From positions 9,301,215-9,365,214 of the forward strand of contig NC_057754.1 in assembly GCF_004010195.1 (NCBI RefSeq): a stretch of 64,000 nucleotides of DNA. The letters run 5' to 3'. The first letter of the stretch is position 1; each line of letters begins with the position of its first letter. A program made the position numbers and the translations under genes. Under the pieces are notes generated by a model. That model ran no database searches and was not told where the DNA came from. It saw only the letters and a program-made list of their open reading frames with translations. Source of the DNA: Chiloscyllium plagiosum (Eukaryota). Of this stretch, positions 8,856 through 59,937 are shown piece by piece.

Positions 8856-9071
8856 NNNNNNNNNNNNNNNNNNNNNNNNNNNNNNNNNNNNNNNNNNNNN
8901 NNNNNNNNNNNNNNNNNNNNNNNNNNNNNNNNNNNNNNNNNNNNNNNNNNNNNNNNNNNNNNNNNNNNNNNNNNNNNNNNNNNNNNNNNNNNNNNNNNNN
9001 NNNNNNNNNNNNNNNNNNNNNNNNNNNNNNNNNNNNNNNNNNNNNNNNNNNNNNNNNNNNNNNNNNNNNNN
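8856..9071. other. Assembly gap (run of N)
   Basis: N characters in the sequence. Confidence 1.
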
Positions 9072-13563: not shown

Positions 13564-14640
13564 TTATTCATGAACCCGCTGGTGTCTCAGCAGGGCAGTT
13601 GAATGAGTAAATGCCTTTCCACACTGGGAGCAGGTGAATGGCCTCTCCCCTGTGTGAATTCGCTGGTGTACAGTGAGGTTAGATGATCGCCGGAACCCAG
13701 CTCCACAGTGAGAACATCTGAATGGCTTCTCATCAGTGTGAACACGTTGATGGCGTGTCAAGTCCCTAGAACATTGAAAGCACTTCCCACAGTCTGTGCA
13801 TTTAAAAGGTCTGTTGCCAGTGTGGACTCGCTGGTGACTCAGCAAGTTGGATGCATCAGTGAATCCTTTCCCACACTCTGGGCAGATGTACGGTCGTTCC
13901 CCAGTGTGAACTCGCTGGTGTGTCAGCAAGTTAGATAACCGAGTGAACCTCTTCTCGCACTTGGAGCAGGTGAACGGCCTCTCACCGGTGTGAATGCGCT
14001 GGTGTGTCAGCAGGTAGGATGACCGCGTGAATGCCTTCCCACAATCTGAGCAAGTGAATGGTTTCTCCCCAGTGTGAACTCGCTGGTGTATCAGCAAGGT
14101 GGATGAATGAGTGAATCCCTTCCCACACTCCAAGCAGTTGAACGGTTTCTCCTTTGTGTGAACTCGCTGGTGTATCAGTAGGTCAGATGACTGAGTGAAT
14201 CCCCTCCCACATTCAGAGCAGGTGAATGGTCGTTCCCCAGTGTGAACTCGCTGGTGTCTCAACAGGGTAGATGACTGAGTGAATCCCTTCCCACACATGG
14301 AGCATGTGAATGGTCTCTCACCAGTATGAATTCGCTGGTGTAGAGTTAGTTCTGATGGCTGAGTGTATCCCTTTCCACACTCCGAGCAGGTGAACGGTCT
14401 CTCCCCAGTGTGAAGCTGTTGATGTCTCAGCAGGGTGGACGACTGAGTGAATCCCTTCCCACACTCTGAGCAGGTAAATGGTTTCTCTCCAGTGCGAGTT
14501 TGTCTGTGAATAATGAGTTCAGATGACTCCCTGAACTGAGTCCCATAGTTAGAGGACCTGAACGGTCTCTCGTCATTGTGAACAGATTGACGAGACATAA
14601 GTTCCCCAGACTTTTGTAGGAACTCCCAAAATCTGGACAT
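13564..14640 (-). CDS. Tandem C2H2 zinc-finger protein, 11 intact fingers, eroded N-terminus (ZNF-1)
   Basis: 358-aa ORF with 11 C-x2-C-x12-H-x3-H fingers and TGE(K/R)PF linkers. The first ~50 aa are broken fingers and the start codon is uncertain. Confidence 0.85.
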
Positions 14641-15020
14641 TTAAAAGATCTGTCTTCACTGAACTCACTGGTGATCCAGCAGAGAGGATGACTGAGTGAA
14701 CTGCTTCTCACGCTTGGAGCTGGCAAATAATTTCTCTCCAGAGTGACTGTACCTGTGCGATTCCAGCTCAGATAAGTAATTGAATTCCTTCTCACAGTTC
14801 CCAGTTTTCCATCACTTCTCAAATAAATTTGTGTCTTGACATTCCAGATGACTAGCTGAACACAAAACACATGTTTAGATTCCCCCACTGTGATTGGTGT
14901 TTTTTCCTTCCATGTTCAAAATCCAATGATATTCAGATTGTGATCATTTGAGAAAGTGTCAGATTCCACGGTGATGTTTGGTTTGGGTTTCCTGACTGAA
15001 CATCCTCCACTTCCAATACC
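14641..15020 (-). other. ZNF-1 exon-2 leader with decayed N-terminal fingers; splice acceptor at 15021-15022
   Basis: Minus strand TTTGAATCACTTTCACAG|GGTATTGGAAGTGGAGGATG, then EK*WKTGNCEKEFNYLSELESHRYSHSGEK...HQ*. Confidence 0.7.
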
Positions 15021-15164
15021 CTGTGAAAGTGATTCAAAATACAGAAGATGAAGTGACAGCGTCCTCACAAAGGCAGGCTTAGAAATTGACAGAATCTGTT
15101 CGTTCACATGAGGAGAAAGAACTAGGAGCAGGAGAAGGCAATTCAGTTCCTCGAGTGGCTTGCT

Positions 15165-16947: not shown

Positions 16948-17490
16948 TGTGGTGTAAAATTATGTCCCAATACATGTGTGAATCATAATGTAACACATGT
17001 ATTGGGCCAAGCAGTGGAATGTGGTGAAACGGTTAAAAATTATGTCCCAATACATGTGTGAATCTAACCGGAATGGAGGTGTTGCTTAGTCCCGTGTGAA
17101 TCTTATTACACACCTCCCCGTGTGAATCTTCTTATCTGTATGTAACCAGAATGGAATGTGTTTTTTAGCCTTGCTCTGCTGTTCACATGAATGTTTATAT
17201 CTGGAAAAGAGTATATCAGCTGGAAAAGTCTCCAGTTCGGTGAGTCTGCTCCGGGGTTACGTTTAACCGCCGAGCGTGGGTTGTTGGCAACCGCTCTACG
17301 AGAACTGACGGCTCCCAGTTCCGGTAACATGTAGAGTGAGTATAAGCCAGACCCGTTGTAAGTATGAGACCTGGTTGTGGCGACGCTGCGGGGAATAAAA
17401 TGCTCATATTCTAGCAGACTCGCCTCTTGGTCGTTTGTTCTGTGTCAGACTACTCTCCTACGAACCTGACCTTGAGAATTTTTTAAAACA
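16948..17490 (+). mobile_element. Solo LTR (543 bp)
   Basis: TG...CA ends, CCCCC on both flanks (16943-16947, 17491-17495), AATAAA at ~17394 and U3-like direct repeats; Penelope sequence resumes on both sides. Confidence 0.8.
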
Positions 17491-18569
17491 CCCCCACAGC
17501 CCCATGGCACTTTCCCCTGCAACTGCAGAAGATGTAACGCCTCTATGTTTACCTCCTCCCTCCTCAGTATCCAAGGGCCCAAATACACCTGACAGGTGAA
17601 ACAGTGCTTTACCTACACTTTACACAATCTAATCTACTGCATTCACTGCTCACAATGTGGTCTCTTTTACATTGGGTAAATGAAGTGTAGACTGGGTGAC
17701 CGCTTCACAAAAGACCTATGCTCTGCCCACAAAAAAAGACCCTGAGCTTCCAGTTGCCTGCCACTTCAACACACCACCCTGTTCGCTGGCCAACATTTCT
17801 GTCTCAAGATTGCTTCATTGCTCCAGCGAAGTTCAGGGCAAGCTGGATGAACAGCACATCATTTTCCACCTGGGAGTCTGCAGCCTTCTGGACTCAATAT
17901 AGAGTTCAATAAATTTAGGACTAGAGCTCTCCCATGTCCTGACCCTGACCCCTACACAGCAGGCCTTGTTATCACACTGTCTGCTATTACATACAGCCTG
18001 TCCATTAGTCACCAACACGATCTCCATTAACAGCTGTTCACCCTCCTAATCAGACTGTTATCCACTCCAATTGTTCTTCTCTCTCTTTGGGCTCTACCTC
18101 CACCTTTTGCTTACTCCTTACCTCCCTCCCCATCCAATCTTCTGCATATATACCGCCATTTTCCGAGCTAACATCAGTTCTGAGGAAGAGTCACTGGACC
18201 CCGAAACCCCTGATTTCTCTCTCTTGGTGCTGCTGGACTTGCTTCATTAGAGATAAATAAAACTGCAGATGCTGGAATCCAAAGTAAAAGAGCAAGAGGC
18301 TGGAAGCACACAGCAAGCCAGGCAACATCAGGAGATGGAGAAGTTGGCGTTTCGGGTATAACACTTCTTTTCCAACAGCTTCTGTTTTTGTGCCTTGGAG
18401 ACATGAGACAGGGCACAAGGAAGTGGGATCTGGAATGCAGGATTGGCCTTTTGTTTCTCATTGGGATGCTGGAACTCAAAAGGTAATATTACAGCTTGAT
18501 GGACAGGTAGTCTCCATCTTAAACCACTGTCAGGAACTTGCTCCCTGCCCTTTGGCAAACTGACCCAAT

Positions 18570-18950
18570 AAAATGGTGGCAACACCTACATGCTCGCCCC
18601 CAACCAAAGTGGCGGCCGCGCATGTGCACTGTCGCTCGCTGCCCCCGATAAACATGGCGGCCACTCGCCGGGGCCTAATGGCAAGGAGCCGCGACCGCGA
18701 TTTGTGCAAACGAGGGGCCGATACATTCATTTTCCGCGTTCGCCGCTGGCAGAATATCGTTACGAACCCTCTCGGTTCACTCGCTGAATCCATCGTTTCC
18801 TCTATCCCCCACCGCTCATTCTTACCCCGTGTGGATCTGTGAAGAAAACCGCCGCATCGGCGCCATTATTCGCTGCAGCGTATTCCGCAGAGGCTTCGGA
18901 ACTGCGACTGCGCACTGATCTCTGCATTGTGGAGAGGGGAATGCTGGGTC
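18570..18950 (-). promoter_or_regulatory. CpG-island promoter and non-coding exon 1 of ZNF-1
   Basis: High CpG density; YY1-type sites at 18570-18580 and 18651-18662; minus-strand donor GG|GTAAGA at 18825; homologous to 47700-47980. Confidence 0.75.
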
Positions 18951-19609
18951 ATGCATGTACAATCAAAGTAAATTGTAGCACACTCTCTGTAGGAAATGTG
19001 TAATGATAAAGATATGAAACAAGGCATACTAAAAAAAAAACTGTCTGCATGGACTTTCCATTAACCGCCAGAATGAAGGAAATTGGTGCAAAGTCGAGAG
19101 TTAGTAAAACAAAACTTTAAGACTCATTTTATAAACTCACAGGTATTGGAATGAATGAATCCACGCTCATTAGCAGAACATTGAAACAGTCTCTGATAGG
19201 AACACATTGAGTATTATGTACCAGCGGTAAAAGACAAGAAAGTGGAGTTGAGGATGATCAGTTCAGTCATGATTTTATTAAACGGCAGAATGGCTGACTT
19301 CTGCTTCTCCATTTGATGGTCTTCAGTGAATTCCTAAAACTCTCAACACTCCAGAAGAAAATATTCCTCCTTATCTCTCTCTCTCAAATTTCCCGTAATT
19401 TTAAAACAGACCCTGTTTTAGATTCTCCCACAAGAAGAAACCTCGTGTCCAATGACTTTTCATCTTTAATTTTAAATAAGGAGACCAATAAGGCATATCG
19501 TATTTCTGACTTTTATCTTATTACTTTTCTGTCAAGTCCCCCTCAAGAAACAATGGCATTCTATTAGCTTTCATAATTACTTCACTTGCTGTACCTACAT
19601 ACTGATTCC

Positions 19610-22651: not shown

Positions 22652-22931
22652 GTAACCATCAACTCCACTTTCCTTTCACCCTCGAATCGCTTACCAGATT
22701 TAAAAATTGTCTCTCTCAGCCTTGAATAAACTTAGTGACCGAGCCTCAATACCCCCTTGTAATTGAAAATTCCACGGCAGCAATGAAAAGGTTTCTGGAT
22801 CTTCCAGAATTTGGGTAAGCGTCTGAGGGTCAGACCTTCCTCGGATTTGCAACTCGAAGCGCCCTCCGCCCCGACCTGTCCTCACTCCGAGATGGCGGTC
22901 AGTTGCCCGGGTAACCGGCGTGGGCGGAATA

Positions 22932-23261
22932 CCCACCCCCTCGTTCACTCCGATTGGTTGGAGGGACCATTCTTTCCGGATCAGTGCTCCAGCCCCGCCT
23001 CCTCATTCACGCCGATTAGTTGGAGGACTATCCGCTCCATCTTAGTCCTCCAGCCCCGCCTCCTCGTTCACTCCCGATTGGTTGGAGGACCATGCCCGCC
23101 AGCTCGGGCCTCCAGCCCCGCCTCCTCATTCACTCCTATTGGTTGAGGTTGGAGGACCATCCCCTCCAGCTGATTCCTCCTGCCCTACATCCCCCTCATT
23201 CACTCTGATTGGTTGGAGGAAGCCCCGCCCCCTCATTCATACCGCTTGTATGGAGGACTAG
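22932..23261 (+). repeat. Array of six ~45-bp repeats with 16-bp variable spacers (period ~61-67 bp)
   Basis: Consensus CTCCAGCCCCGCCTCCTCATTCACTCCGATTGGTTGGAGGACCAT at 22932 (partial), 22987, 23048, 23110, 23177 and 23221 (degenerate). Confidence 0.9.
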
Positions 23262-23319
23262 TCGGCTCATGCTTGGTCTTCCAGTTCTCAGTCATTAATC
23301 GTCCGGGCTCCATTGTTGA

Positions 23320-23452
23320 GATTTGGAGGTGCCAGTGTTGGACTGGGGTGTACAAAGTTAAAAATCACACAACACCAGGTTATAGTCCAATAGGTTTAAT
23401 TGGAAGCTCCGAAAGCTAGTGCTTCCAATTAAACCTGTTGAACTATAACTTG
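23320..23452. mobile_element. Short fold-back element, family A, inside the CpG island
   Basis: CCAGGTTATAGTCCAATAGGTTTAATTGGAAGC / GCTTCCAATTAAACCTGTTGAACTATAACTTGG inverted arms. Confidence 0.75.
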
Positions 23453-24659
23453 GCCCCATTGTCAAATTGCAACACGCGCGGTTGCCGGTGCTGGACCTGG
23501 ATGGAGATGGTGAGTTGCAATCTCGGGGTCCACTCTCAAAACACACAACTAGAAAGTCCTGATCCCGTGTCTGCACCTAGAGGCCGCCGGGATTTAGATT
23601 GGGGGTCCATCATTGTTTAGGGCAAAAAAGCCCTATTAATGACCCGAAAGGAGGGCGACAAATAAGAGTTTTAGGGAAATCAAATGTAAAACAAAGAACT
23701 GCGCACGCTAGAGCTCTGAAACAAAATCAGAATTTGCTGGAGAATTCGAGAAGGAGCAAATTACTGCAGATGTAACCTGTACTGAAAAAAACAACTTCTG
23801 GAGATCACAGCGCGTCAGACAGCAGCCATGAAGAGAGAACAAGCTAGCGTTTTGAGTCCAGATGACTCTGCATCATAGCTGAAGTGAAGCGTGGAGATGG
23901 AAGCATTTATGCTACAGTTGAAGGACGACTTTGGAAGGTGTGCCGGTGGTAAGTGAGAGTGCTGGTGGAGAAAATACGTGGATAGTTCAGATTAAGTGAT
24001 CGGAATATGAGAAGGGCAAACACTTTGTTGAACACTGATCGCTTAACCTGAACTATCAACAATTTTTCTCCACCGGCAGTGGTTATACTAACCACTGCCA
24101 CCTCCCACCCTCCGACTCACTTGAGCTGACCCCTCCAGACTTCACTTGAGCTCTGTTGAAGAGTCATCTGGCCTTGGAAAGTTGACTTGCTCTCTTTCTT
24201 ATTAGATGCTGTCTGGCCCACTGTGACCTTCAGCATTTGTTGTTTTCAGTTAACATTTTGAATCCTTTATTTTATATGGTGCCTTTCTCAGAATGAACCA
24301 TCTCCGTGCACTTCACTGGAAAGTTGCAGGACAAACTTTGACACTGAGACTCAAAGAGATATTAGGACAGGTGACCAGAAGGTGGATCAAAAGGCACGTT
24401 TTCAGGAGTATTTTAAAATAGAGAAATTGAGGTAGAAAGGTGGAGGGATGTCATTCCAGAGCATCTGGCTGACGAATAAAGACACAACCATCAATTGTGA
24501 AGTAACTAAAACTGGGAATACTCCAGAAATCCACATTAGGGAAGCACAGGTACCTCAGAAGGTTGTGGGATTGGAGAAGATGACAGAGATAGGGAAGGCT
24601 GAGACCACAGGATGTCAAAACACAAGTAGAATAGCCATCCAATGGAGTCTGCTCTGCAT

Positions 24660-25139: not shown

Positions 25140-25320
25140 TCTATGTTGTGTGAACTTCTCGATGGAGTCATAGTCATAGTTTTTAAATAATGGAGTGAAT
25201 TGATCCTTACAACAGAGGCGGTGAATAGATCATCCACTGTGACTTGCTGATGCAAAAGCAGGTTGAATGACTGAGTGAATATCTTCCATCATATAGGGCA
25301 GATGAACTGACTCTTCTTGG
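25140..25320 (-). pseudogene. Small relic of about two C2H2 fingers
   Basis: Minus strand TTCATCTGCCCTATATGATGGAAGATATTCACTCAGTCATTCAACCTGCTTTTGCATCAGCAAGTCACAGTGG reads approximately FICPI*WKIFTQSFNLLLHQQV. Confidence 0.65.
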
Positions 25321-25367
25321 TCTGATAATTTTCCACCTTGGATGGGTTACAAAATCCCTATACTTTT

Positions 25368-26187: not shown

Positions 26188-29100
26188 CAAGGTTGGGACA
26201 ATGAAAATAGAGAGAAAGTGTTCTTGCTGGTGGAAGTGTTGAGAACCAGAGGAGACCAGTTTAAAATAATTGACAAAAGAAATGATGCTGATATGAGAAG
26301 AAAAAATTGCTTCACTGAGATCTGCACAGCACTGCCTGAGAATATGGTGGAGGCAGATTCACTTGAGGCTTCTAAAAGAGAATTGAACAATTATCTGAAG
26401 AGAACAGAAGTAGAGGGCCAAATTAGAAAAATGGGCCTAGGTGTATTGCTATTGCAGAGAGCTAACATAGACACAGTAAGTCAAATGCCTCCCTCTGTGC
26501 TGTAACCAGACCCAGGAAAAGAAATTATGGGTATTGGTTCTTCACATGCTTCTGGGCCTCAATAACCCCAATAACTCGTGTCGGTGTGGGTTTCCTCTGG
26601 TTTCCAGAATTGGAAACCATAGTACACTGGAGATACAATGGTTTCAACCCATTTCATGTGGACTTAGCAAAACACCTTGCCTACTGTCTTCTATTATTCA
26701 TAAAGCCCAATGAAAACTCAGATTTAATGTTGATTTACTTCACAACTTTGTCAGACATGTATGCACAATATGGTTGTTCATATTTTGCAACCAGCTTTGC
26801 TTCATTGAGCCTGGCCCTCTCTCTATGTATATCCAGCCTGCAATATTCAAAAGGCTTGGCCAACAGAAAATATTGCACTGGAAACAAAAATGCTGGAAAT
26901 CACAGCAGGTCAGGCAGCATCCATGGAGAGAGACCAAGCTAATGTTTCAAGTCAAGAAGACTCTACATCGGACCACTTTGCCTTGAGCAATAAATATATT
27001 CTTATTTTATGTTAAACTGACCACATTCACAAATGCCTAGCATTGTGTAGATAGTCAACAGCGAAATATGACAGGTATTGGAAATCTGAAATAGAAACAG
27101 AAAATTCTAGAAATTCCCACCAGGCCAAGAATCAATGTTTCAGATCTACAATGTGCACAGCTTAAGATTAAAGAGTCACTGACCTTTGCATAGATACTGT
27201 TCGATGTATTGAGCAATTTAACACTTCCTATTTCTATTGAAGCAAAAATAACCCATTTTGTCAGCCCTCTAAAAAGCAATCAGATTTATTGATAGCTTAC
27301 CATTTCCCTGCAGTAAGAAACCCAGCATCACTTGCGTGAAATCTGCTTTGGCACAACATTAAGCATGAATGTCAAAATAAGTTAAGGTATGAAGCAATTT
27401 GCTGAGCAACAAAAAAGTCTCAAAGCAATACTTTTTTTGAATGAAATTCAATAAATATATCCATTAAGAAATGGCCAAAGTGTAGAGTTAGCTTTAAAAA
27501 AAACCCTTAATATGTAATGGTAGGGGGAGACAAACTGGGCTCCAAACCCCCAGAGAATGGGATGGGGCTGGAAAGCTAAGGAGTTGGATCTAACTAATGC
27601 TGACTTCTCATTTGGCTCCACTGGTGCACACTCCAAGCTGTGTGGTGTTCATTAAAAAAGTGGACATTAGAAATGAGATGTCTTTCAGCCTGTGTTTTCC
27701 TTCTCTCCGAGTTTGATGTGTGATTAGGTTTTTGTGGAAGGAGGAGGATGAAAGGCAGAGCTTGCTTGTTGTGTCCACATGTGTGTACAGCCCAATGTCT
27801 CTGTGTGTAAGTATGTGTCTTGTGGGCATTCAGTTCAGTACCAGTACAGATTGTATATATACACAGACACACTCTGTCTCTATCTCTCTTTCTTTCATGC
27901 CCTCTCACATACATTCTCGTTCACTCTCTTTTGGGCATTCCCTTGCGCACAGTCATATTTACTTGCATGCATGCATACACACTCTCATTCACGCATTTAC
28001 TCTTCTGCCTCTCCATTACCAGACAGGAGATTGATTTGGGAAGGACTTAGCCAGGTCCACATAAATTAAGTGAAAACTTATTTTTCATTTTAGTTTTATT
28101 TCAGTTTGAAGTATTATTCATATGGTTAATTCAAATTAAAATGAAATGAATTCGAACTGGAAATGTAGAGGCGAAAAGCATTCGATGGGATATGCTTTTA
28201 GTCAATATTGAGAAATATTAAGGTTGGAGCAGGAGAGAAATAATAAAACAATGGTTCAATGATAATGGTCCATTAGTATAGCCTGTCATATTTGAACAAA
28301 GCTAGAGCAATGCTAAAATCATTGCAATAAATCAGAGGGAATTGTATAGGTAGGAAATAAAATTAAAAACTCTTGAAACTTATCTGCAATTTCAGTGCTC
28401 TGCATTGCGGTGAAATAATTATCAACACCCAAGAACGTGCTCTGAAAACAACAAGTAGTGCCTTCAGTGGGCCAGCGCATGCATGAAAGGTCAGGATCAT
28501 GGCCAGGGGTGGACTACGTCATTTGGTATGCACCCTGACTGTGAAAACAATGGTCACATGGACTTGAGCTCTCACTCCAGCATAACAGGACCTCAAGCAC
28601 TAGAATTTTGTCACTGAGCAGGGTGCTGCCACACTCTTGTTTGAAAGCATATTGAGGTATGAGGCAACCACTGCAGACATGATCTTTGGTGATCAGAACC
28701 ATATGTATGCCCTCTCCTGATTGGAAACACTCAATAATACAACATCATGGGTCTGTAGTTCACTAATGCAGGAGAGGCTGTTTTGTTCCTTATTGATATT
28801 ATGAACTTATGCCCCAGTGCAAGTTTGGGTGATTGAGCTGAGAATACAGAATCAGTAAGTGGTGAAGAATCAAAGATTCGCCAGGGAATGGATTAATAAC
28901 TCGGGGTGCTGCACAAATCTCAAGTGTAACCCCAATTAGATTGATTAAATTGTAAGCAAATATACCGCTCACTTCTTTGTTTTAGTTTCATTAAATACCG
29001 ATTGTCAATGTGGCGCTTCTCAGAAGTTTTCTCACCGCTGTCTGCTCATGTTAACATGATCTCCTATCAGACGAATGTGTTTCTATATTTCACAAAGTTT

Positions 29101-29199
29101 ATAAACATCTCAGCTATCCGTCATGTCCAGTTGGTCTACCCAGAATGCCCCACGTTGCAGAGAGCGATTGTCAATTATCGGGAGGGTGCAGATTAATGG

Positions 29200-29630
29200 C
29201 GTTTTGTTTACCCAGACCGCCCTGCGCTGCAGAAAGCCCCCTATCAGTGACTATGGTAGCCCAGTGCGCAAAGTAGAAGCAGTCTGTGCTCTGAGCATGC
29301 TCAGTGTCAGTCATGGAGACAGCATGAGGAGGAGCGGACGCTCGGGTGTCACGACGAGATTGAGGAAGGGTAAGGGTGGAAACCGCGGCACTGAGGCCTG
29401 GTAACATTATCAATTCCTGGAGGAGGCCCCCTGAGGCTCCGAATAGGAATCGCTAGGCGTGTTTGCTCAGCGGGCGGGCTCTCTGACCGCCATCTTGTGA
29501 GTGGGTGTCAGGGATCCGGGGCACGATCTCCCGAAGTGGTCCCGGGTTACCTAGGCAACTGTTAGCCCGCCATCTTGGTGAAGGAATGACCCTGGCAACC
29601 GGCGGCCATTTTGTTGAGGATGTCAGGTCT
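29200..29630 (+). promoter_or_regulatory. CpG-island promoter, exon 1 and intron 1 of ZNF-2
   Basis: CTGAGCATGCTCAG palindrome; donors G|GTAAGG (29370) or G|GTAACA (29401); YY1-type sites 29487, 29567, 29603; X-box GTTACCTAGGCAAC 29546-29559; acceptor TATTTACAG| at 29701. Confidence 0.75.
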
Positions 29631-30097
29631 TTGGGGAAATAATGAATGGGAATCGTTAGATATGTCTTTTCTGATTTTTTTTTTCAATCCTGTATTTACA
29701 GGCTGGAAAATGTAATCGAACACCACATCAAGATGTCACCGTCACCCCATTCAGCAGGACCTGAAAACGATTGGATTTTGAATATGAAAGGAGAAATGTC
29801 TGATGCTTTGCATGTGGGGAAATATTTCGTACCTGAGGATGATTTGGCAAAACACTGAAACTATCACACACCCCAGAATGAGAATGTTCTGGTGCAAAGG
29901 CTGTGAAAAGAGCTTTAACCAGTTAACGTGGTCTGACTGAATGTTCCAGGGCACTGACTATGGAGAGAGCTTTAATGAATCACACAGCCTGAAAAAAAAT
30001 CACAACATTCACAGTGTGGAGAAAATATCAGTGTTGTGTCCTTAAAAAAAGCTTAAACTGATCGTTCAATCTGGGGAGACGCAAGAACACTCAGAGC

Positions 30098-31399
30098 ATG
30101 GAGAAACGATGGAAATGTGAGGACTGCGGTAAAGGATTTGATTATCCATCTCTGCTGGAAATTCATCGACGCAGTCACACAGGTGAGAGACCATTCATCT
30201 GTTCTGTGTGTGGGAAGGGATTTACTAAATCATCCAGCCTCATGTACCACCAGCGAATTCACACTCAGGAGAAGCCATTCAGCTGCACTTACTGTGGAAA
30301 AAAATTCAGGCAGTCATGCAACCTCACTGCACACCAGCGAATTCATACTGAGGAAAGGCCATTCAGCTGCACTCACTGTGGAAAAAAGTTCAGGCAGTCT
30401 TCAAATCTCACTGCACACCAACTAATTCACACGGGCGAGAAGTCATTCATTTGCTCTGTGTGTGGGAAGGGATTCGCTCAGTCATCAGGACTTTGGTCCC
30501 ACCAGCGAATTCACACTGGGAATAAATTATTCAGTGACACATCCTGTACAAGGAAGTTGAAGTCTTCAACTGGCCTCACGTCACAAGATGATCCTAGAGA
30601 GAAGCCATTTATCTGCTCTGTGTGTGGAAAGGGATTTAGTCAGTCAGGTAGCCTCCTGCTACATCAGCGAATTCACACTGAGGAGAGGCCATTCAGCTGC
30701 ACTCAGTGTGGGAAGAGGTTTAAGCATTCAAACACTCTCACTGCACACCAGCGAATTCATACTGGGGAGAAGCCATTCACTTGCTCCAAATGTGGAAAGG
30801 GATTTGCTCAGTCATCCAACCTGGTAGTGCACCAACGAATTCACGCTGAAGAAAAGCCATTAAACTGCACTCACTGTGGAAAGAGTTTCAGGTCTTCATC
30901 CAATCTCATTGCACATCAGCGCACTCATACAGGGGAGAGAAGGTTCATCTGTTCTGTGTGTGGGAAGGGATTCACTCAGTCAGCCAGCCTCATGTTACAC
31001 CAGCGAATTCACAGTGGGGAAATGCCGTTCAGCTGCACTCAGTGTGGAAAGCAGTTCAGACATTCATCCACCCTCAGTGCACACCAACGAGTTCATACTG
31101 GGGAGAAGCCATTCATTTGCTCCATATGTGGGAAAGGATTCACACATTCATCTGGCCTTTGGTCTCACAAGCGAGTTCACACTGGGGAGAGGCAATTCAG
31201 CTGCATTGCGTGTGGAAAAAGATTCAGGTCTGCATCTGATTTGAATGTACACAAGCGAGTTCACACTGGGGAGAGGCCATTCACCTGTTCTACTTGTGGG
31301 AAGGGATTTACTCTGTCATCCAATCTGCTGACACATCAGAGAATTCATAAGCGTCAACAGAGTTTGAATTCAGCTGTTAATCACGTTCAAGATTTATAG
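30098..31399 (+). CDS. Tandem C2H2 zinc-finger protein, 14 fingers plus 1 degenerate (ZNF-2)
   Basis: 433-aa ORF starting [30 protein letters not shown] in good context (AGCATGG); no effector domain visible. Confidence 0.92.
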   Translation: MEKRWKCEDCGKGFDYPSLLEIHRRSHTGERPFICSVCGKGFTKSSSLMYHQRIHTQEKPFSCTYCGKKFRQSCNLTAHQRIHTEERPFSCTHCGKKFRQSSNLTAHQLIHTGEKSFICSVCGKGFAQSSGLWSHQRIHTGNKLFSDTSCTRKLKSSTGLTSQDDPREKPFICSVCGKGFSQSGSLLLHQRIHTEERPFSCTQCGKRFKHSNTLTAHQRIHTGEKPFTCSKCGKGFAQSSNLVVHQRIHAEEKPLNCTHCGKSFRSSSNLIAHQRTHTGERRFICSVCGKGFTQSASLMLHQRIHSGEMPFSCTQCGKQFRHSSTLSAHQRVHTGEKPFICSICGKGFTHSSGLWSHKRVHTGERQFSCIACGKRFRSASDLNVHKRVHTGERPFTCSTCGKGFTLSSNLLTHQRIHKRQQSLNSAVNHVQDL

Positions 31400-47579: not shown

Positions 47580-48260
47580 TCGATTCTCCGCCTCCTGTTC
47601 CTACTCGATAACTAAAAAAACAATTAAATAACGGCAAAAAAAACAGAACCGCCAATGGCGAAGGTAGTACCCAGCAGCCTCCGCGGTGGTGAATACGCTG
47701 TATTCACACAATGGAAAAGCGGTGCGCAGTCGCAGCACCTAAGCATGCGCAGAATGGGCATTAGCGGTAGTTCTTTGTTTCTCGGATCCGCAAACGGTAA
47801 GAATACGGCGGGGTGGAAGGAGCGATGAATCCAGTGGGCAGTCGCGCATGATTCGTAAATGTGTTTTGTAAGTCTCCATCTAACCCCGATAAGGAATTTC
47901 TTTCCCCCTTTCCTGGTGTGCATCGAAATGGGCCGCAGCTACCAGCGTAGGTCCCCGGTTGCCGGCCGCCATCTTTATTAGGGGCATTGAGGGCTGGGCG
48001 CACCCTCACCGCCATCTTTGTAGGGGGAGGGGCGATGTTCTCAATGACTGGGGAGCATCAGCTCAGAACAGTAGCTCAGACTGGCTTAGTTGCCTGTCAA
48101 GCTGACGAAGTGTCTGATTGGTGAGGCAGCGCTGCGGTACACAAGGAAGGGAAAGGACGCAAATCCTGCACCCCAGTTCGCTCTAGCCATGGTAGGTCCT
48201 GCTCCATGTATCCAAAGATCCGCAACTCACATGAACAGCGACGGCGTGTAAACCTCTTCC
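47580..48260 (+). promoter_or_regulatory. CpG-island promoter and non-coding exon 1 of ZNF-3
   Basis: CCAAT at 47652; NRF1-like GCATGCGCA at ~47743; donor CG|GTAAGA at 47797; YY1-type CCGCCATCTT at 47966 and 48009. Confidence 0.78.
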
Positions 48261-48264
48261 GCAG

Positions 48265-48456
48265 GGTATTTGCAGAGGATTTGAAGACAGGAAACTCAAA
48301 CCGCCCAGCACATCGAAATTAAGTGGCACTGTATTCATCACAACCTGGGTATTATCCACCTTTGAGTGTAAACATCTACTTCCTAGTCGTTAGCGCTCAC
48401 ACCATCAAACCTCTTCCTCACGCCCCTCTGTGGAGTTCTGTCCTATTTATGATCAG
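48265..48456 (+). other. Candidate extra 5' UTR exon, a duplicate of the family leader
   Basis: CTCTTCCGCAG|GGTATTTGCAGAGGATTTGAAGACAGGAAACTCAAACC; possible donor CAG|GTAATG at 48457. Confidence 0.55.
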
Positions 48457-48826: not shown

Positions 48827-49497
48827 TTATTGAAAACTAACGTTAGGGTGAAATATTTTGCCTGATTGTGAATAGTGTAATTAAGTCTCATGCAGATACC
48901 AGGGAGAGTCAGTGGTCAGGGAGTGGAGTTCATAGTGGGGACTGAAAACAATGGCTTAATTCTTTCCAATATTTCTGTTCCTACTGTACTGGATATCACA
49001 CAGATCTGTACAATGTGTAACATTGTGATAAATTTAGTGATGATAGAGTTAACATAAACCTTCTGCCTTCGTCCTTCTAGGAGGTTGAGAGTTTGGCTTA
49101 TAAAAGCCCTCTTATTCATCTTCTGCTTTTCCCAATTATCTCTGACTCTTTCTGTCTCCACCCATTGATGCAAAAGTCTTCTGTGAGTCCAGACCAAGTG
49201 ACAGGGTTTCTTGCTGGAAGGACATTCGTGAATCAATGATTTTCTTATGATAGTTGTCCTAACCTTTATGTATTACATTTTCTAGTTGTGGTTTCAGAAA
49301 CTACCATATTTAATCAGCTCAATTTAACAATTTGTTTTGTGGGCTTCTCTCTTATTATCTTTTTCCTGTTTTCAATCAATTTCACAGGATATCAGAAGAG
49401 GATAATTTGCAATTAGGAAATTCAAACTGACCATCACAATGGGATTTGATAAGAGTCTTCTATTTTCTGGTAACCTGAAAATCAATGCATTTTGAAC

Positions 49498-50535
49498 ATG
49501 GAAGGAAAAAGCATCATTTGCACTAGGGAGAAACTGTACATGTGTTCTGTATGTGGACGAGACTTCAGCCGATCATCTGGTTTATCCAGACACAAGTGCA
49601 GTCAGACTGGGGAGAACCCGTGGAAATGTGAGGACTGTGGGAAGGGATTCAATTACCCATCTGACCTGGAGACACATCAGCGCAGTCACACTGGGGAGAA
49701 ACCGTTCACCTGTCCTCAGTGTGGGAAGGCCTTCACACAGTCATCCACCCTCCTCAAACATCAGCGTGATCACAATGGCTACAGGCCATTCACCTGTCCT
49801 GAGTGTGGGAAGGGATTCACTCAGTTTTCCAACTTCTTGGGTCATCAGAGAACTCACACTGGGGAGAGGCCATTCACCTGCGCAGAGTGTGGGAAGGGAT
49901 TCACTCAGTCATCCCACCTGATGGCACATCAGCGAGTTCACACTGGGAACAGACCTTTCACCTGCTCCGAATGTGGGAAGGGAAGCTCTCAGTTATCAGA
50001 TCTGCTGAAACACCAGCGGGTTCACACTGGTGAGAGACCATTCACTTGCTCTGAGTGTGGAAAGGGATTCACTCAGTCATCGCACTTGCTGAAACACCAG
50101 CGAGTTCACAGTGATGAAAGACCATTTGAATGCCTGCATTGTGGGAAGCGTTTTAAAAGTTCTGTGGAGCTGGTGTCTCATCAACGGGTTCACAGTGACG
50201 AGAGACCTTTTAAATGCCGAGACTGTGGGAAGTGCTTTAAAACTTCTGGGGAACTGGTAACCCATCAACGCGTTCACACTGACGAGAGACCGTTCAGATG
50301 CTCTCACTGTGGGACTGGGTTCAGGAAATCATCTCAACTCACTGTACACCAGCGAATTCACACTGGGGAGAGGCCGCTCAGCTGCTCCAACTGTGGGAAG
50401 AGATTTAATCATTTGTCCAATCTACTAAAACACAAGCGTATTCACACTGGGGAAAAGCCATTCACTTGTTCTGAATGTGGGAAAAGATTCACTCAGTCTT
50501 CCCATCTATTGAGGCATAAGCGAGTTCACAAGTAA
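49498..50535 (+). CDS. Tandem C2H2 zinc-finger protein, 11 fingers plus an atypical N-terminal finger (ZNF-3)
   Basis: The ORF track starts at TTG 49492; the first ATG (AACATGG) is at 49498. Acceptor TTCACAG| at 49387; AATAAA at 50642-50647. Confidence 0.92.
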
Positions 50536-57302: not shown

Positions 57303-58478
57303 TCACTTGTGACCTTGCTGGTGTCTCAGCAGGTGGGATGACTGAGTAAATGCCTTTCCACACTTGCAGGTGAATGGCCTCTCTCCAGTGTGAATTCGCT
57401 GGTGTGTCTGCAGGTGGGATAACTGAATAAATCCCTTCTCACACTCAGAGCAAGTGAATGGTCTCTCCCCAGTATGAACCCGCTGGTGCGTCAACAGGTA
57501 AGATAACCGAGTGAATACCTTCCCACAGTCAGAGCAGGTGAACGGTCTTGCCCCAGTGTGAACGCGCTTGTGCACACTGAGGTAGGAAGAAGACCTGAAC
57601 CTCTTTCCACAGGAAGTGCAGCTGAACGGCCTCTCCTCAGTGTGAATTTGTTGGTGTTTTAGCACATCAGAGGTTTGTGAAAATCCTTTCCCACATACAG
57701 GGCAAGTGAATGGTCTCTCCCCAGTGTGAACATGCTGGTGTGTCAGTAGTTGGGATGATCGAGTGAATCCCTTTCCACACTTGGAGCAAGTGAATGGTCT
57801 CTCTCGAGTGTGAACCCACTGATGTTTTTGCAGACTGATTGACCGAGTAAATCTCTTGCCACATGAGGAGCAGGTAAATTGTCTCTTTCCAGTATGAACT
57901 CGCTGGTGTCTCAGCAATTGGGAAAACTGAGTGAATCTCTTGTCACATTCTGAGCAGGTGAATGGTTTCTCCTTTGTGTGGACTCTCTGATGTGTCAGTA
58001 GGATGGAGGACTGCGTGAATCCTTTACCACACTCAGAGCAGGTGAACGGTCTCTCACCAGTATGAGTGCGTTGATGGATCAGCAAATTGTGGGACTGAGT
58101 GAACGCTTTCCCACACTCAGAGCAGGTAAATGATTTCTCTCCAGTGTGAACATGCTGGTGTCTCAGCAAATTTGATGAACGAGCAAACTGTTTCCCACAA
58201 ACAGAACAGGTGAATGGCCTCTCCCCAGTGTGAACACGTTGGTGTGCAGTGAGGTTGGCTGACTGCCTGAAACGCTTTCCACAGGAACTGCAGCTGAATG
58301 GCTTCTCCTCAGTGTGAATAAGCATGTGTTTCTGAAGACTAGATAATACTGTGAAACCTTTCCCACATGTAGAACAGCTAAATAGCCTCTCTCCAGTGTG
58401 ACTGCGCCGATGAATTTCCAGCTGGGATGGGTAATTGAATCCCTTCCCACAGTCGCCACATTTCCACGGTTTTTCCAT
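57303..58478 (-). CDS. Tandem C2H2 zinc-finger protein, 14 fingers, the last with C-x-C spacing (ZNF-4)
   Basis: 391-aa ORF starting [27 protein letters not shown]; acceptor CTCTTTCCCCACTCCATAG-like at 58587-58588. Confidence 0.92.
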   Translation of the reverse strand: MEKPWKCGDCGKGFNYPSQLEIHRRSHTGERLFSCSTCGKGFTVLSSLQKHMLIHTEEKPFSCSSCGKRFRQSANLTAHQRVHTGERPFTCSVCGKQFARSSNLLRHQHVHTGEKSFTCSECGKAFTQSHNLLIHQRTHTGERPFTCSECGKGFTQSSILLTHQRVHTKEKPFTCSECDKRFTQFSQLLRHQRVHTGKRQFTCSSCGKRFTRSISLQKHQWVHTRERPFTCSKCGKGFTRSSQLLTHQHVHTGERPFTCPVCGKGFSQTSDVLKHQQIHTEERPFSCTSCGKRFRSSSYLSVHKRVHTGARPFTCSDCGKVFTRLSYLLTHQRVHTGERPFTCSECEKGFIQLSHLQTHQRIHTGERPFTCKCGKAFTQSSHLLRHQQGHK

Positions 58479-58832
58479 GGGGTCCTCGGGTCTCTCCCTA
58501 GTGGATGATTGATGTAAGCCTCATCCAAACACAGAACTCATGTAGACATTAGGTTTCCTTCCATATGTAAATCCTCTCCCAAGACTCTATGGAGTGGGGA
58601 AGAGAAAGGAGATTACAAAGTCATCTGTCGGTGCAGAATGGATATTCCAAACAGACAATCGCAGTTCCTCTGCATCATTGGTTTCCTCTTGTACTCCCAA
58701 ATCTGGAAGAATTGCCTTCAAAGGAAGCAAAGGCGTTGTTGTAATGTCACTGAGCAAGCTAATGTTCTGGAAACATGGGTTCAATTCCCACTAGAGCAGG
58801 CAGTGAAATTTTGATTCAATACCAAAATCCGT

Positions 58833-59147: not shown

Positions 59148-59469
59148 AAGCTGGCCTAACCTCTGTCAACTGTTGTAAAATCACATCGGATGCACTAATG
59201 TCCTTTAGGAAGGGAAATCTGCCATCTTTTCCCAATCTGGCCTACATGTGACTCCAGACCCACAAAGTGGGTGGTTTCACCACCTTATGGACACTGAGGG
59301 ATGGACAACTAAACACAGGCCTGACCAGAGATAACCACATCCAATTAACTCAGGAAAAACTCTCTCAAACAAATAAACTGTCGGACAATTCTTCTCAATT
59401 TAACAAACTTGAGCAACTACAGACAAATCAGATTTGTTTCTGGAACCTAATTATTCCTCTCCTTCCAGC

Positions 59470-59770
59470 TCCTGTCAAGATGGTGGCCGCGCCTGCGCCC
59501 TCTGGATTAACGCCTCAGACAACTTCTGCACATGCGCTAGCGCCAGGGTGACTGACGGCGGAGTCAGACCAATAGGAAAAGGGGACTGGGCGGGACGGGT
59601 GTCAATAGGGTCCTCCAACCAATCAGAGCGCAGGCTGCGAATGGAGCATGCGTATTGTGCGAGTGCTGGAGACGGATCGGAGCGCTCGGTGTGGGCTGTG
59701 GAAACTCCCGGAGCCCCTTTTTTATGCTGACCCCTCGGAAACTCGTTATTGCAGGTCAGCGATGGATTGA
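59470..59770. promoter_or_regulatory. CpG-island promoter of ZNF-4, probably bidirectional
   Basis: YY1-like CAAGATGGTGGCC 59476-59488; CCAAT at 59569 and 59619; GC box GGGCGGG 59588; NRF1-like GCACATGCGC and GAGCATGCG. Confidence 0.72.
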
Positions 59771-59937
59771 CACACAGCAAACCTCAACTGAGAGGAATGT
59801 TTGTTTCACCTGGTCTCTCTGTCAACTCCTTTTAAAGGAAATTCAGTGGCAGGCGTTCACACGGAACAGGTCCTGTGAGCCTGCTTTGCTAATCAACATA
59901 ACAAGGGGTGATCTTCTATTTCAGTGATGTGGAGAAG

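Follow-up and report, generated by a model that had tools for sequence, protein, structure and literature searches.

A diverged tandem array of GC-box/CCAAT units in a CpG-rich island of a shark zinc-finger gene cluster

The zinc-finger cluster and its CpG islands

The window, i.e., the whole 64-kb stretch of DNA that was analyzed, holds four long C2H2 zinc-finger open reading frames (ORFs), here called ZNF1 to ZNF4, among copies of LINE, SINE and MITE elements. The array that is the subject of this work lies in a CpG island between the divergent ZNF1 and ZNF2. The genes and the surroundings of the array are:

13564-14640, minus strand: ZNF1, C2H2 zinc-finger ORF, the nearest gene left of the array, with its own island at 18400-19050
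22700-23700, no strand assigned: CpG-rich island with the array, interrupted by a MITE at 23320-23453
23320-23453, no strand assigned: MITE-like palindromic insertion, high-copy, bordering the array and outside it, with 33-nt arms that are 91% complementary
30062-31399, plus strand: ZNF2, C2H2 zinc-finger ORF right of the array, with its own island at 29100-29700
49474-50535, plus strand: ZNF3, C2H2 zinc-finger ORF, with an island at 47580-48450
57303-58520, minus strand: ZNF4, C2H2 zinc-finger ORF, with an island at 59400-59900

The window as a whole is CpG-poor, with an observed/expected CpG ratio (o/e) of 0.33. A density of at least 17 CpG per 300 bp is reached by six regions: each of the four ZNF ORFs has one on its 5' side, the region at 22700-23200 contains the array, and the sixth (17201-17500) sits between ZNF1 and the ZNF1 island. 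The o/e is 0.93 in the left flank of the array and 0.70 in the right flank, and 300-bp windows over 22701-23200 present values of 0.66-0.85 with a GC content of 0.54-0.61. The array's island therefore exceeds the thresholds of a CpG-island promoter (o/e > 0.6, GC > 50%, > 200 bp), while the array alone has an o/e of 0.55. Judging from its sequence, this island is a fifth one of the same make as the four ZNF-promoter islands. Leftward of it, no intact gene follows directly; LINE fragments and ZNF1's own island are found there.

Several other elements were recorded in the window. A nested inverted-repeat element at 23781-24250, with arms of 58, 63 and 42 nt, is multi-copy in all the sequencing runs compared below. 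A decayed zinc-finger remnant at 25208-25357 (minus strand), between the array and ZNF2, has a tblastn E-value of 0.02 and a blastn match of 76% over 75 bp to ZNF2, and may be the trace of a lost ZNF gene. The 5' part of the ZNF1 coding exon (14640-15040, minus strand) is similar to that of ZNF3, and its first fingers are decayed and separated from the intact ORF by a stop. In the ZNF3 island, the stretch 48256-48302 resembles the beginning of the ZNF1 coding exon (14980-15029), with 76% similarity, and is possibly an extra exon copy. A tRNA-Trp called by ARAGORN at 26575-26661 has no Rfam match at gathering score, overlaps a weak SINE-family match and is probably spurious. An assembly gap of 216 N is located at 8856-9071, far from the array.

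Anatomy of the array

Tandem Repeats Finder (TRF) reports a 62-bp period with 4.6 copies and 76% matches at 22932-23220. Six anchors are present, with the first three spacings at 61-62 bp and the remaining ones at 70 and 37 bp, and the array is made up of four full units, one truncated unit and one decayed unit. None of the units is assigned a strand:

22932-22993: unit 1, with a CACCC-type box, an intact CCAAT (minus strand, 22953), a spacer at 22971-22986 and a weak stem
22994-23054: unit 2, with a GC box, a broken CCAAT, a spacer at 23032-23047 and a perfect 10-bp stem at 23021-23052
23055-23116: unit 3, with a GC box, an intact CCAAT (23077) and a spacer at 23094-23109
23117-23186: unit 4, with a GC box, an intact CCAAT (23138) followed by a 6-bp insertion, and a spacer at 23161-23176
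23187-23223: unit 5, 37 bp, with a decayed GC box and an intact CCAAT (23208), and without spacer and right arm
23224-23284: unit 6, with a perfect GC box, a decayed CCAAT, a 17-nt spacer at 23262-23278 and a partial stem

A first-pass annotation, made from the letters of the sequence, had described six GC-box/CCAAT modules separated by four different 16-bp spacers. The six anchors stand, but the modules are not uniformly intact: CCAAT is intact in four of six units (broken in units 2 and 6), a canonical GC box is found in four of six (unit 1 carries the CACCC variant and the box of unit 5 is decayed), and the two occur together in units 3 and 4 only. The distance from GC box to CCAAT is 18-19 bp. 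The four spacers are exact, letter for letter, at the positions given above; unit 6 and its 17-nt fifth spacer run beyond 23261, where that annotation ended. Head-to-tail units within the 10-100 bp range that share descent over the whole unit, as in a minisatellite, are what the array consists of. It is real, and it is an old minisatellite of about 62 bp.

The period of 61-62 bp had also been read as close to six helical turns. With 10.5 bp per turn, the angles of the intact CCAAT boxes are 0, 291, 223 and 103 degrees, and the phase resultant is 0.24-0.55 for 10.4-10.6 bp per turn; one in three of the periods between 40 and 90 bp is as near a whole number of turns as that of the array. A helically phased array of transcription-factor sites is thus not supported, given the uneven spacings (61-62, 70 and 37 bp) and the scattered CCAAT angles.

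Spacers and the rest of the unit

The spacers present a mean pairwise identity of 56%, versus 29% when shuffled, and none of 100,000 shuffles reaches 56%. Hence, they are homologous rather than different, i.e., diverged copies of one sequence, and the CRISPR-like wording "repeat-spacer" misleads, given the spacers share descent. Spacers unrelated to one another and acquired from elsewhere were not found, and CRISPR-like acquisition is ruled out.

That the repeats are better conserved than the spacers, as the same annotation had it, is borne out. Outside the spacers, identity is 89%, and 35 of 45 columns are invariant, versus four of 16 in the spacer (Fisher p = 0.0005). A permutation allowing any 16-column window, which is a post-hoc test, yields p = 0.008 and 0.002. 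The Jukes-Cantor (JC) distance is 0.66 for the spacers and 0.12 for the rest, and the rate of change of the spacer is about four times that of the rest of the unit. Four of the spacers have a length of 16 and the fifth of 17. Of the 15 spacer changes, nine are transversions, and there is no C>T excess; deamination in the loop or CpG decay is therefore not supported as the explanation for the divergence. Inversion of spacers by template switching is likewise ruled out, with two to five of 16 positions matching between inverted spacers. Conservation as high as that of the motifs is also found in the linker and in the inverted arms, neither of which matches a recognized motif. This contrast between spacer and rest is the well-founded and somewhat uncommon aspect of the array, and constraint on the motif-bearing part of the unit is a plausible reading of it.

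The inverted repeat and its folding

Each full unit contains an imperfect inverted 12-mer, one copy of which is fused to the CCAAT box and the other to the GC box. Since the inverted repeat is inherited with the unit, it counts once. The end of each repeat had been said to be complementary to the start of the next. This holds in part: Watson-Crick pairing is found at 46 of the 65 arm positions of five units, but unit 2 alone has a near-perfect stem and unit 5 has none. The perfect stem of unit 2, which the first-pass annotation had singled out, is indeed present and is one of five perfect stems of at least 10 bp with a loop of at most 25 in the 64 kb. A perfect stem of at least 8 bp is found in 0.5-4% of shuffled units. 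Allowing at most one mismatch, the 12-mer has 12 matches in the window against 1.3 expected, six of them in the array. Four of the 12-mer's matches are perfect: three belong to the array, and the ZNF4 promoter has the remaining one, which there too is fused to a CCAAT box.

The suggestion that the array is a structured RNA or a cruciform element fared poorly. Folded as DNA, the hairpin of unit 2 has z = -4.7, while the other four of five hairpins have z above -2; folding the whole array as RNA yields z = -2.0 on the plus strand and +0.5 on the minus strand. The covariation score of the stems, 0.115, is below the mean of 0.148 obtained on shuffling (460 of 500 shuffles score as high), and one pair only presents a two-sided change. 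No Rfam match was found in the window. The array thus presents neither covarying pairs nor, in most units, folding beyond that of shuffled sequences, at the low power that five sequences provide. Loops of 12-14 nt with stems of 6-10 bp are, moreover, poor cruciform substrates. The best reading is that the inverted repeat is incidental.

Promoter motifs and likeness to ZNF promoters

The motif scans used consensus words, not weight matrices. In these scans, NF-Y, Sp, YY1 and RFX consensus sites are present in the array's island and TATA is absent; the only AATAAA is inside a flanking repeat. Two modules are shared with ZNF promoters of the cluster:

22868-22917, plus strand: YY1 and RFX (X-box) module, which resembles the ZNF2 promoter on the opposite strand (29475-29578)
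59609-59628, minus strand: the CCAAT-plus-12-mer module, present once, in the CpG island 5' of ZNF4

The local alignment of the left flank with the ZNF2 promoter has z = 5.6, which none of 200 shuffles matched, and both share a YY1 site followed by an X-box. Sites of the RFX pattern occur at two places in the window only (22902 and 29546), and both of them, together with eight of the 12 YY1-pattern matches in the window, fall in the five islands. The array itself resembles the ZNF4 promoter (z = 5.4), and unit 5 is identical to 59611-59628 around CCAAT at 18 of 18 positions (E = 0.002). The remaining 22 of 24 island comparisons are not significant at p < 0.02. A 50-bp stretch with 76% identity, in the same orientation relative to the gene, is common to the ZNF1 (18882-18931) and ZNF3 (47707-47755) promoters.

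Given the CpG richness of the island, its matches to the YY1 and RFX patterns and its homology to two ZNF promoters, the setting appears to be of promoter type, and the predicted cluster of NF-Y and Sp sites that had been proposed is upheld at that level. In human promoters, the pairing of NF-Y with Sp1 is well established (PMC2715254).

Words for YY1 lie antisense to the gene in all four ZNF promoters (18400-19050, 29100-29700, 47580-48450 and 59400-59900), in three of them 117-169 bp after a GTAAG donor-like site. As far as sequence can tell, this layout is a promoter plan common to the cluster. Given YY1 is antisense in all four neighboring ZNF promoters, leftward firing is predicted for the array's island, with the array, by analogy, at or near the start region. 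The direction is uncertain, since donor-like sites exist on both strands (plus strand at 22815 and 23510; minus strand at 23242, 22885 and 22694) and the orientation of the CCAAT module relative to YY1 is inverted compared with the ZNF4 promoter.

Comparison with reads of other species

Of 24 sequencing runs that were listed, four (X9, X15, X18 and X21) were compared with 22740-24450. In run X15 (organism C), whose RNA origin is only guessed, a single contig of 557 nt spans 22740-23038 without gaps and with four differences: two in 192 bases of the left flank, two in 23 spacer sites, and none in 84 other bases of the array. The difference between spacer and the rest of the array has a one-sided p = 0.045, resting on two changes, and organism C agrees weakly with a fast spacer and a slow rest. 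In the left flank, the change 22889 G>A completes a YY1 consensus. The two differences in the array are both in spacer 1 (22983 and 22986), and both convert stem mismatches to pairs. At 22986, organism C carries the letter that most of the other units have, and unit 1 of the window is therefore read as the one that lost pairing; two pairs were probably lost from it in the window's lineage. Contigs of lower depth in X15 extend to about 23260, and none lies over 23494-23667, a coverage pattern that fits, weakly, leftward transcription from the array.

Run X9 (organism B) is DNA-like and presents 39 changes in 773 right-flank bases, i.e., a divergence of about 5%. Unit-like contigs cover all six bins of the array, with summed depths, which are not copy numbers, of 20-33 over units 1-2 and 75-176 over units 3-6, compared with 19-26 for single-copy flank contigs and 6e5-1e7 for the MITE at 23320-23453. 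These depths point to a small number of additional unit-like copies and speak against an abundant transposon. On the unique parts, the depth was zero with X21, consisting of raw single-cell polyA reads of which about 2% were read, and with X18, no control promoter having been compared.

Interpretation and alternative explanations

We favor, with moderate confidence, the reading that the array arose by tandem amplification of a GC-box/CCAAT segment from a ZNF-type promoter, that about 45 bp of the unit are constrained while 16 bp drift, and that the result is a redundant, unphased NF-Y/Sp cluster. The mechanism that we infer, including factor binding, selection, promoter activity, direction and target, would be as follows. 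A piece of about 61 bp from a CpG-island promoter of the ZNF family, with GC box, CCAAT and the imperfect 12-bp inverted repeat, would have been tandemly duplicated to about six units, which later decayed through point changes and indels. Purifying selection for binding by NF-Y and Sp/KLF would act on the approximately 45 bp carrying the sites and leave the 16 bp that separate the arms to drift freely. The redundant unphased site cluster would hold the island open and aid TATA-less initiation, most likely leftward (minus strand), for an upstream alternative promoter of ZNF1 or for an orphan promoter yielding a non-coding RNA.

An unlikely but tangible alternative is that the array is a neutral by-product of slippage at an open germline promoter, with the inverted arms homogenized by template switching or conversion and the loop mutating faster. 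The fast part does nearly coincide with the loop that the inverted arms enclose, the segment missing from unit 5 is precisely the 24 bp that begin within the left arm and run to the right arm, and broken sites are tolerated in three of six units. In unit 2, the two arms carry matching changes, which template switching gives without selection (PMC5453318), and mutational duplication of sites at germline-open chromatin is known (PMC8559717). However, the GC box, linker and CCAAT are outside the arms and yet equally conserved, the spacers are not mutual inversions, no C>T excess is found, and both organism C differences are at the 3' arm edge, which is where homogenization is expected. Quite doubtful, in our judgment, is a reading in which the inverted 12-mer, whose two copies per unit stand 14 bp apart, serves as a dyad for a specific dimeric or zinc-finger factor that the cluster may encode, the 16-bp spacer setting the dyad geometry beside NF-Y and Sp. 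The excess of the 12-mer in the window, its perfect CCAAT-fused copy in the ZNF4 promoter, and a spacer length held despite sequence drift would fit such a site. Nevertheless, the copies in the array, being of common descent, amount to a single event, only one half is found in the ZNF4 promoter, the arms are broken at one to three positions in most units, and, indels being rare anyway, constant length over four copies is a weak argument. We give similarly little credence to an extension of this idea, in which the array is a cluster-level control element, the 12-mer with CCAAT and GC box binds a novel zinc-finger factor that the cluster may encode, and the geneless island is an autoregulatory hub or enhancer for the ZNF genes around it, the spacer being fixed in length and free in sequence. 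Should the 0.66 changes per spacer site be the outcome of neutral drift in a lineage that evolves slowly, the array would date back very far.

An array of RNA hairpins or DNA cruciforms under structural selection is very unlikely. Although stems of at least 8 bp are infrequent in shuffled units, the plus-strand fold and the unit 2 hairpin fall below shuffled sequences, and both organism C array differences turn mismatches into pairs, the covariation score is lower than that of shuffled stems with a two-sided change at one pair, four of five hairpins are unexceptional, the transcript predicted from the minus strand has a positive z, Rfam has no match, and unit 1 of the window has probably lost two pairs; for cruciforms, the loops and stems are poor substrates in general. 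Equally slight is the probability of a mobile origin, with the units as U3-like enhancer repeats from a solo LTR of low copy number or from another mobile element, as in human LTR12, whose U3 has 5-17 tandem repeats of about 41 nt with a conserved CCAAT (PMC11853044). The depth of organism B over units 3-6 relative to its flank leaves room for more unit-like copies. Against this, a second copy was not found in the 64-kb window, the depth of the array is four to five orders below that of the adjacent MITE, TATA was not found and the sole AATAAA is in a flanking repeat, and both flanking modules match host ZNF promoters.

If the reading we favor is true, the array would show cleanly how a natural promoter acquires a cluster of NF-Y/Sp sites through tandem duplication, its spacer serving as an internal neutral control, and would offer a first view of a shared promoter plan of shark ZNF clusters (YY1 antisense after the first donor, RFX, NF-Y). 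Such an example is of use to specialists and alters no principle; it would carry greater weight if the inverted 12-mer proved to be the binding site of a cluster-encoded protein.

Comparison with known systems

Phased CCAAT arrays exist in cell-cycle promoters such as that of cyclin B2 (about 32-33 bp), GC-box repeats of 21 bp exist in SV40, and enhancers of 60/81 bp exist in Xenopus rDNA. All of these consist of repeated activator sites or promoter pieces, as does the array, which differs from them in its lack of phase and its several broken sites.

A metagenome scan with a 25-base pattern of the unit yielded no matches. With an 18-base pattern, 42 loci were obtained, none of them similar to the window at E 1e-5 and none past 34 bp; these were judged to be chance matches. 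In the literature as far as searched, no description of the array or of shark ZNF-promoter repeats was found, nor in the available part of PMC13047888. The array is undescribed to that extent, and the way in which its sites would have multiplied is a known one.

The degenerate tandem repeat with YY1 sites at the Peg3-DMR (PMC4196374) also lies by a CpG-island promoter and keeps a transcription-factor motif in each unit, whereas the YY1 site of the array is single and outside the repeat, its repeated sites are of NF-Y and Sp/KLF type, and it has no known imprinting context. With the U3 of LTR12/ERV9 (PMC11853044), the array shares tandem repeats of tens of bp, an NF-Y CCAAT with a G-rich partner, and diverged subtypes; it differs in that no LTR ends, TATA or high copy number were found, the partner is a GC box and not GATA, and the flanks are like ZNF promoters. 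The composite DECA-CCAAT element of TALE, NF-Y and Sp2, in which DECA is 11 bp from CCAAT (10.64898/2026.02.16.706105), is similar in placing a CCAAT box beside a fixed neighboring sequence. As a candidate it was rejected, since no DECA-like word was seen by eye 11 bp from CCAAT, the nearest look-alike being 1 bp away.

Homotypic clusters of transcription-factor sites arise by local duplication in promoters (PMC3188502; PMC8559717). As in those clusters, neighboring sites of the array were tandemly duplicated from one sequence in a CpG-rich, promoter-like region and then diverged. The array differs in a unit of 61-62 bp with two types of site and an inverted repeat, the cases cited there being mostly of 5-50 bp.
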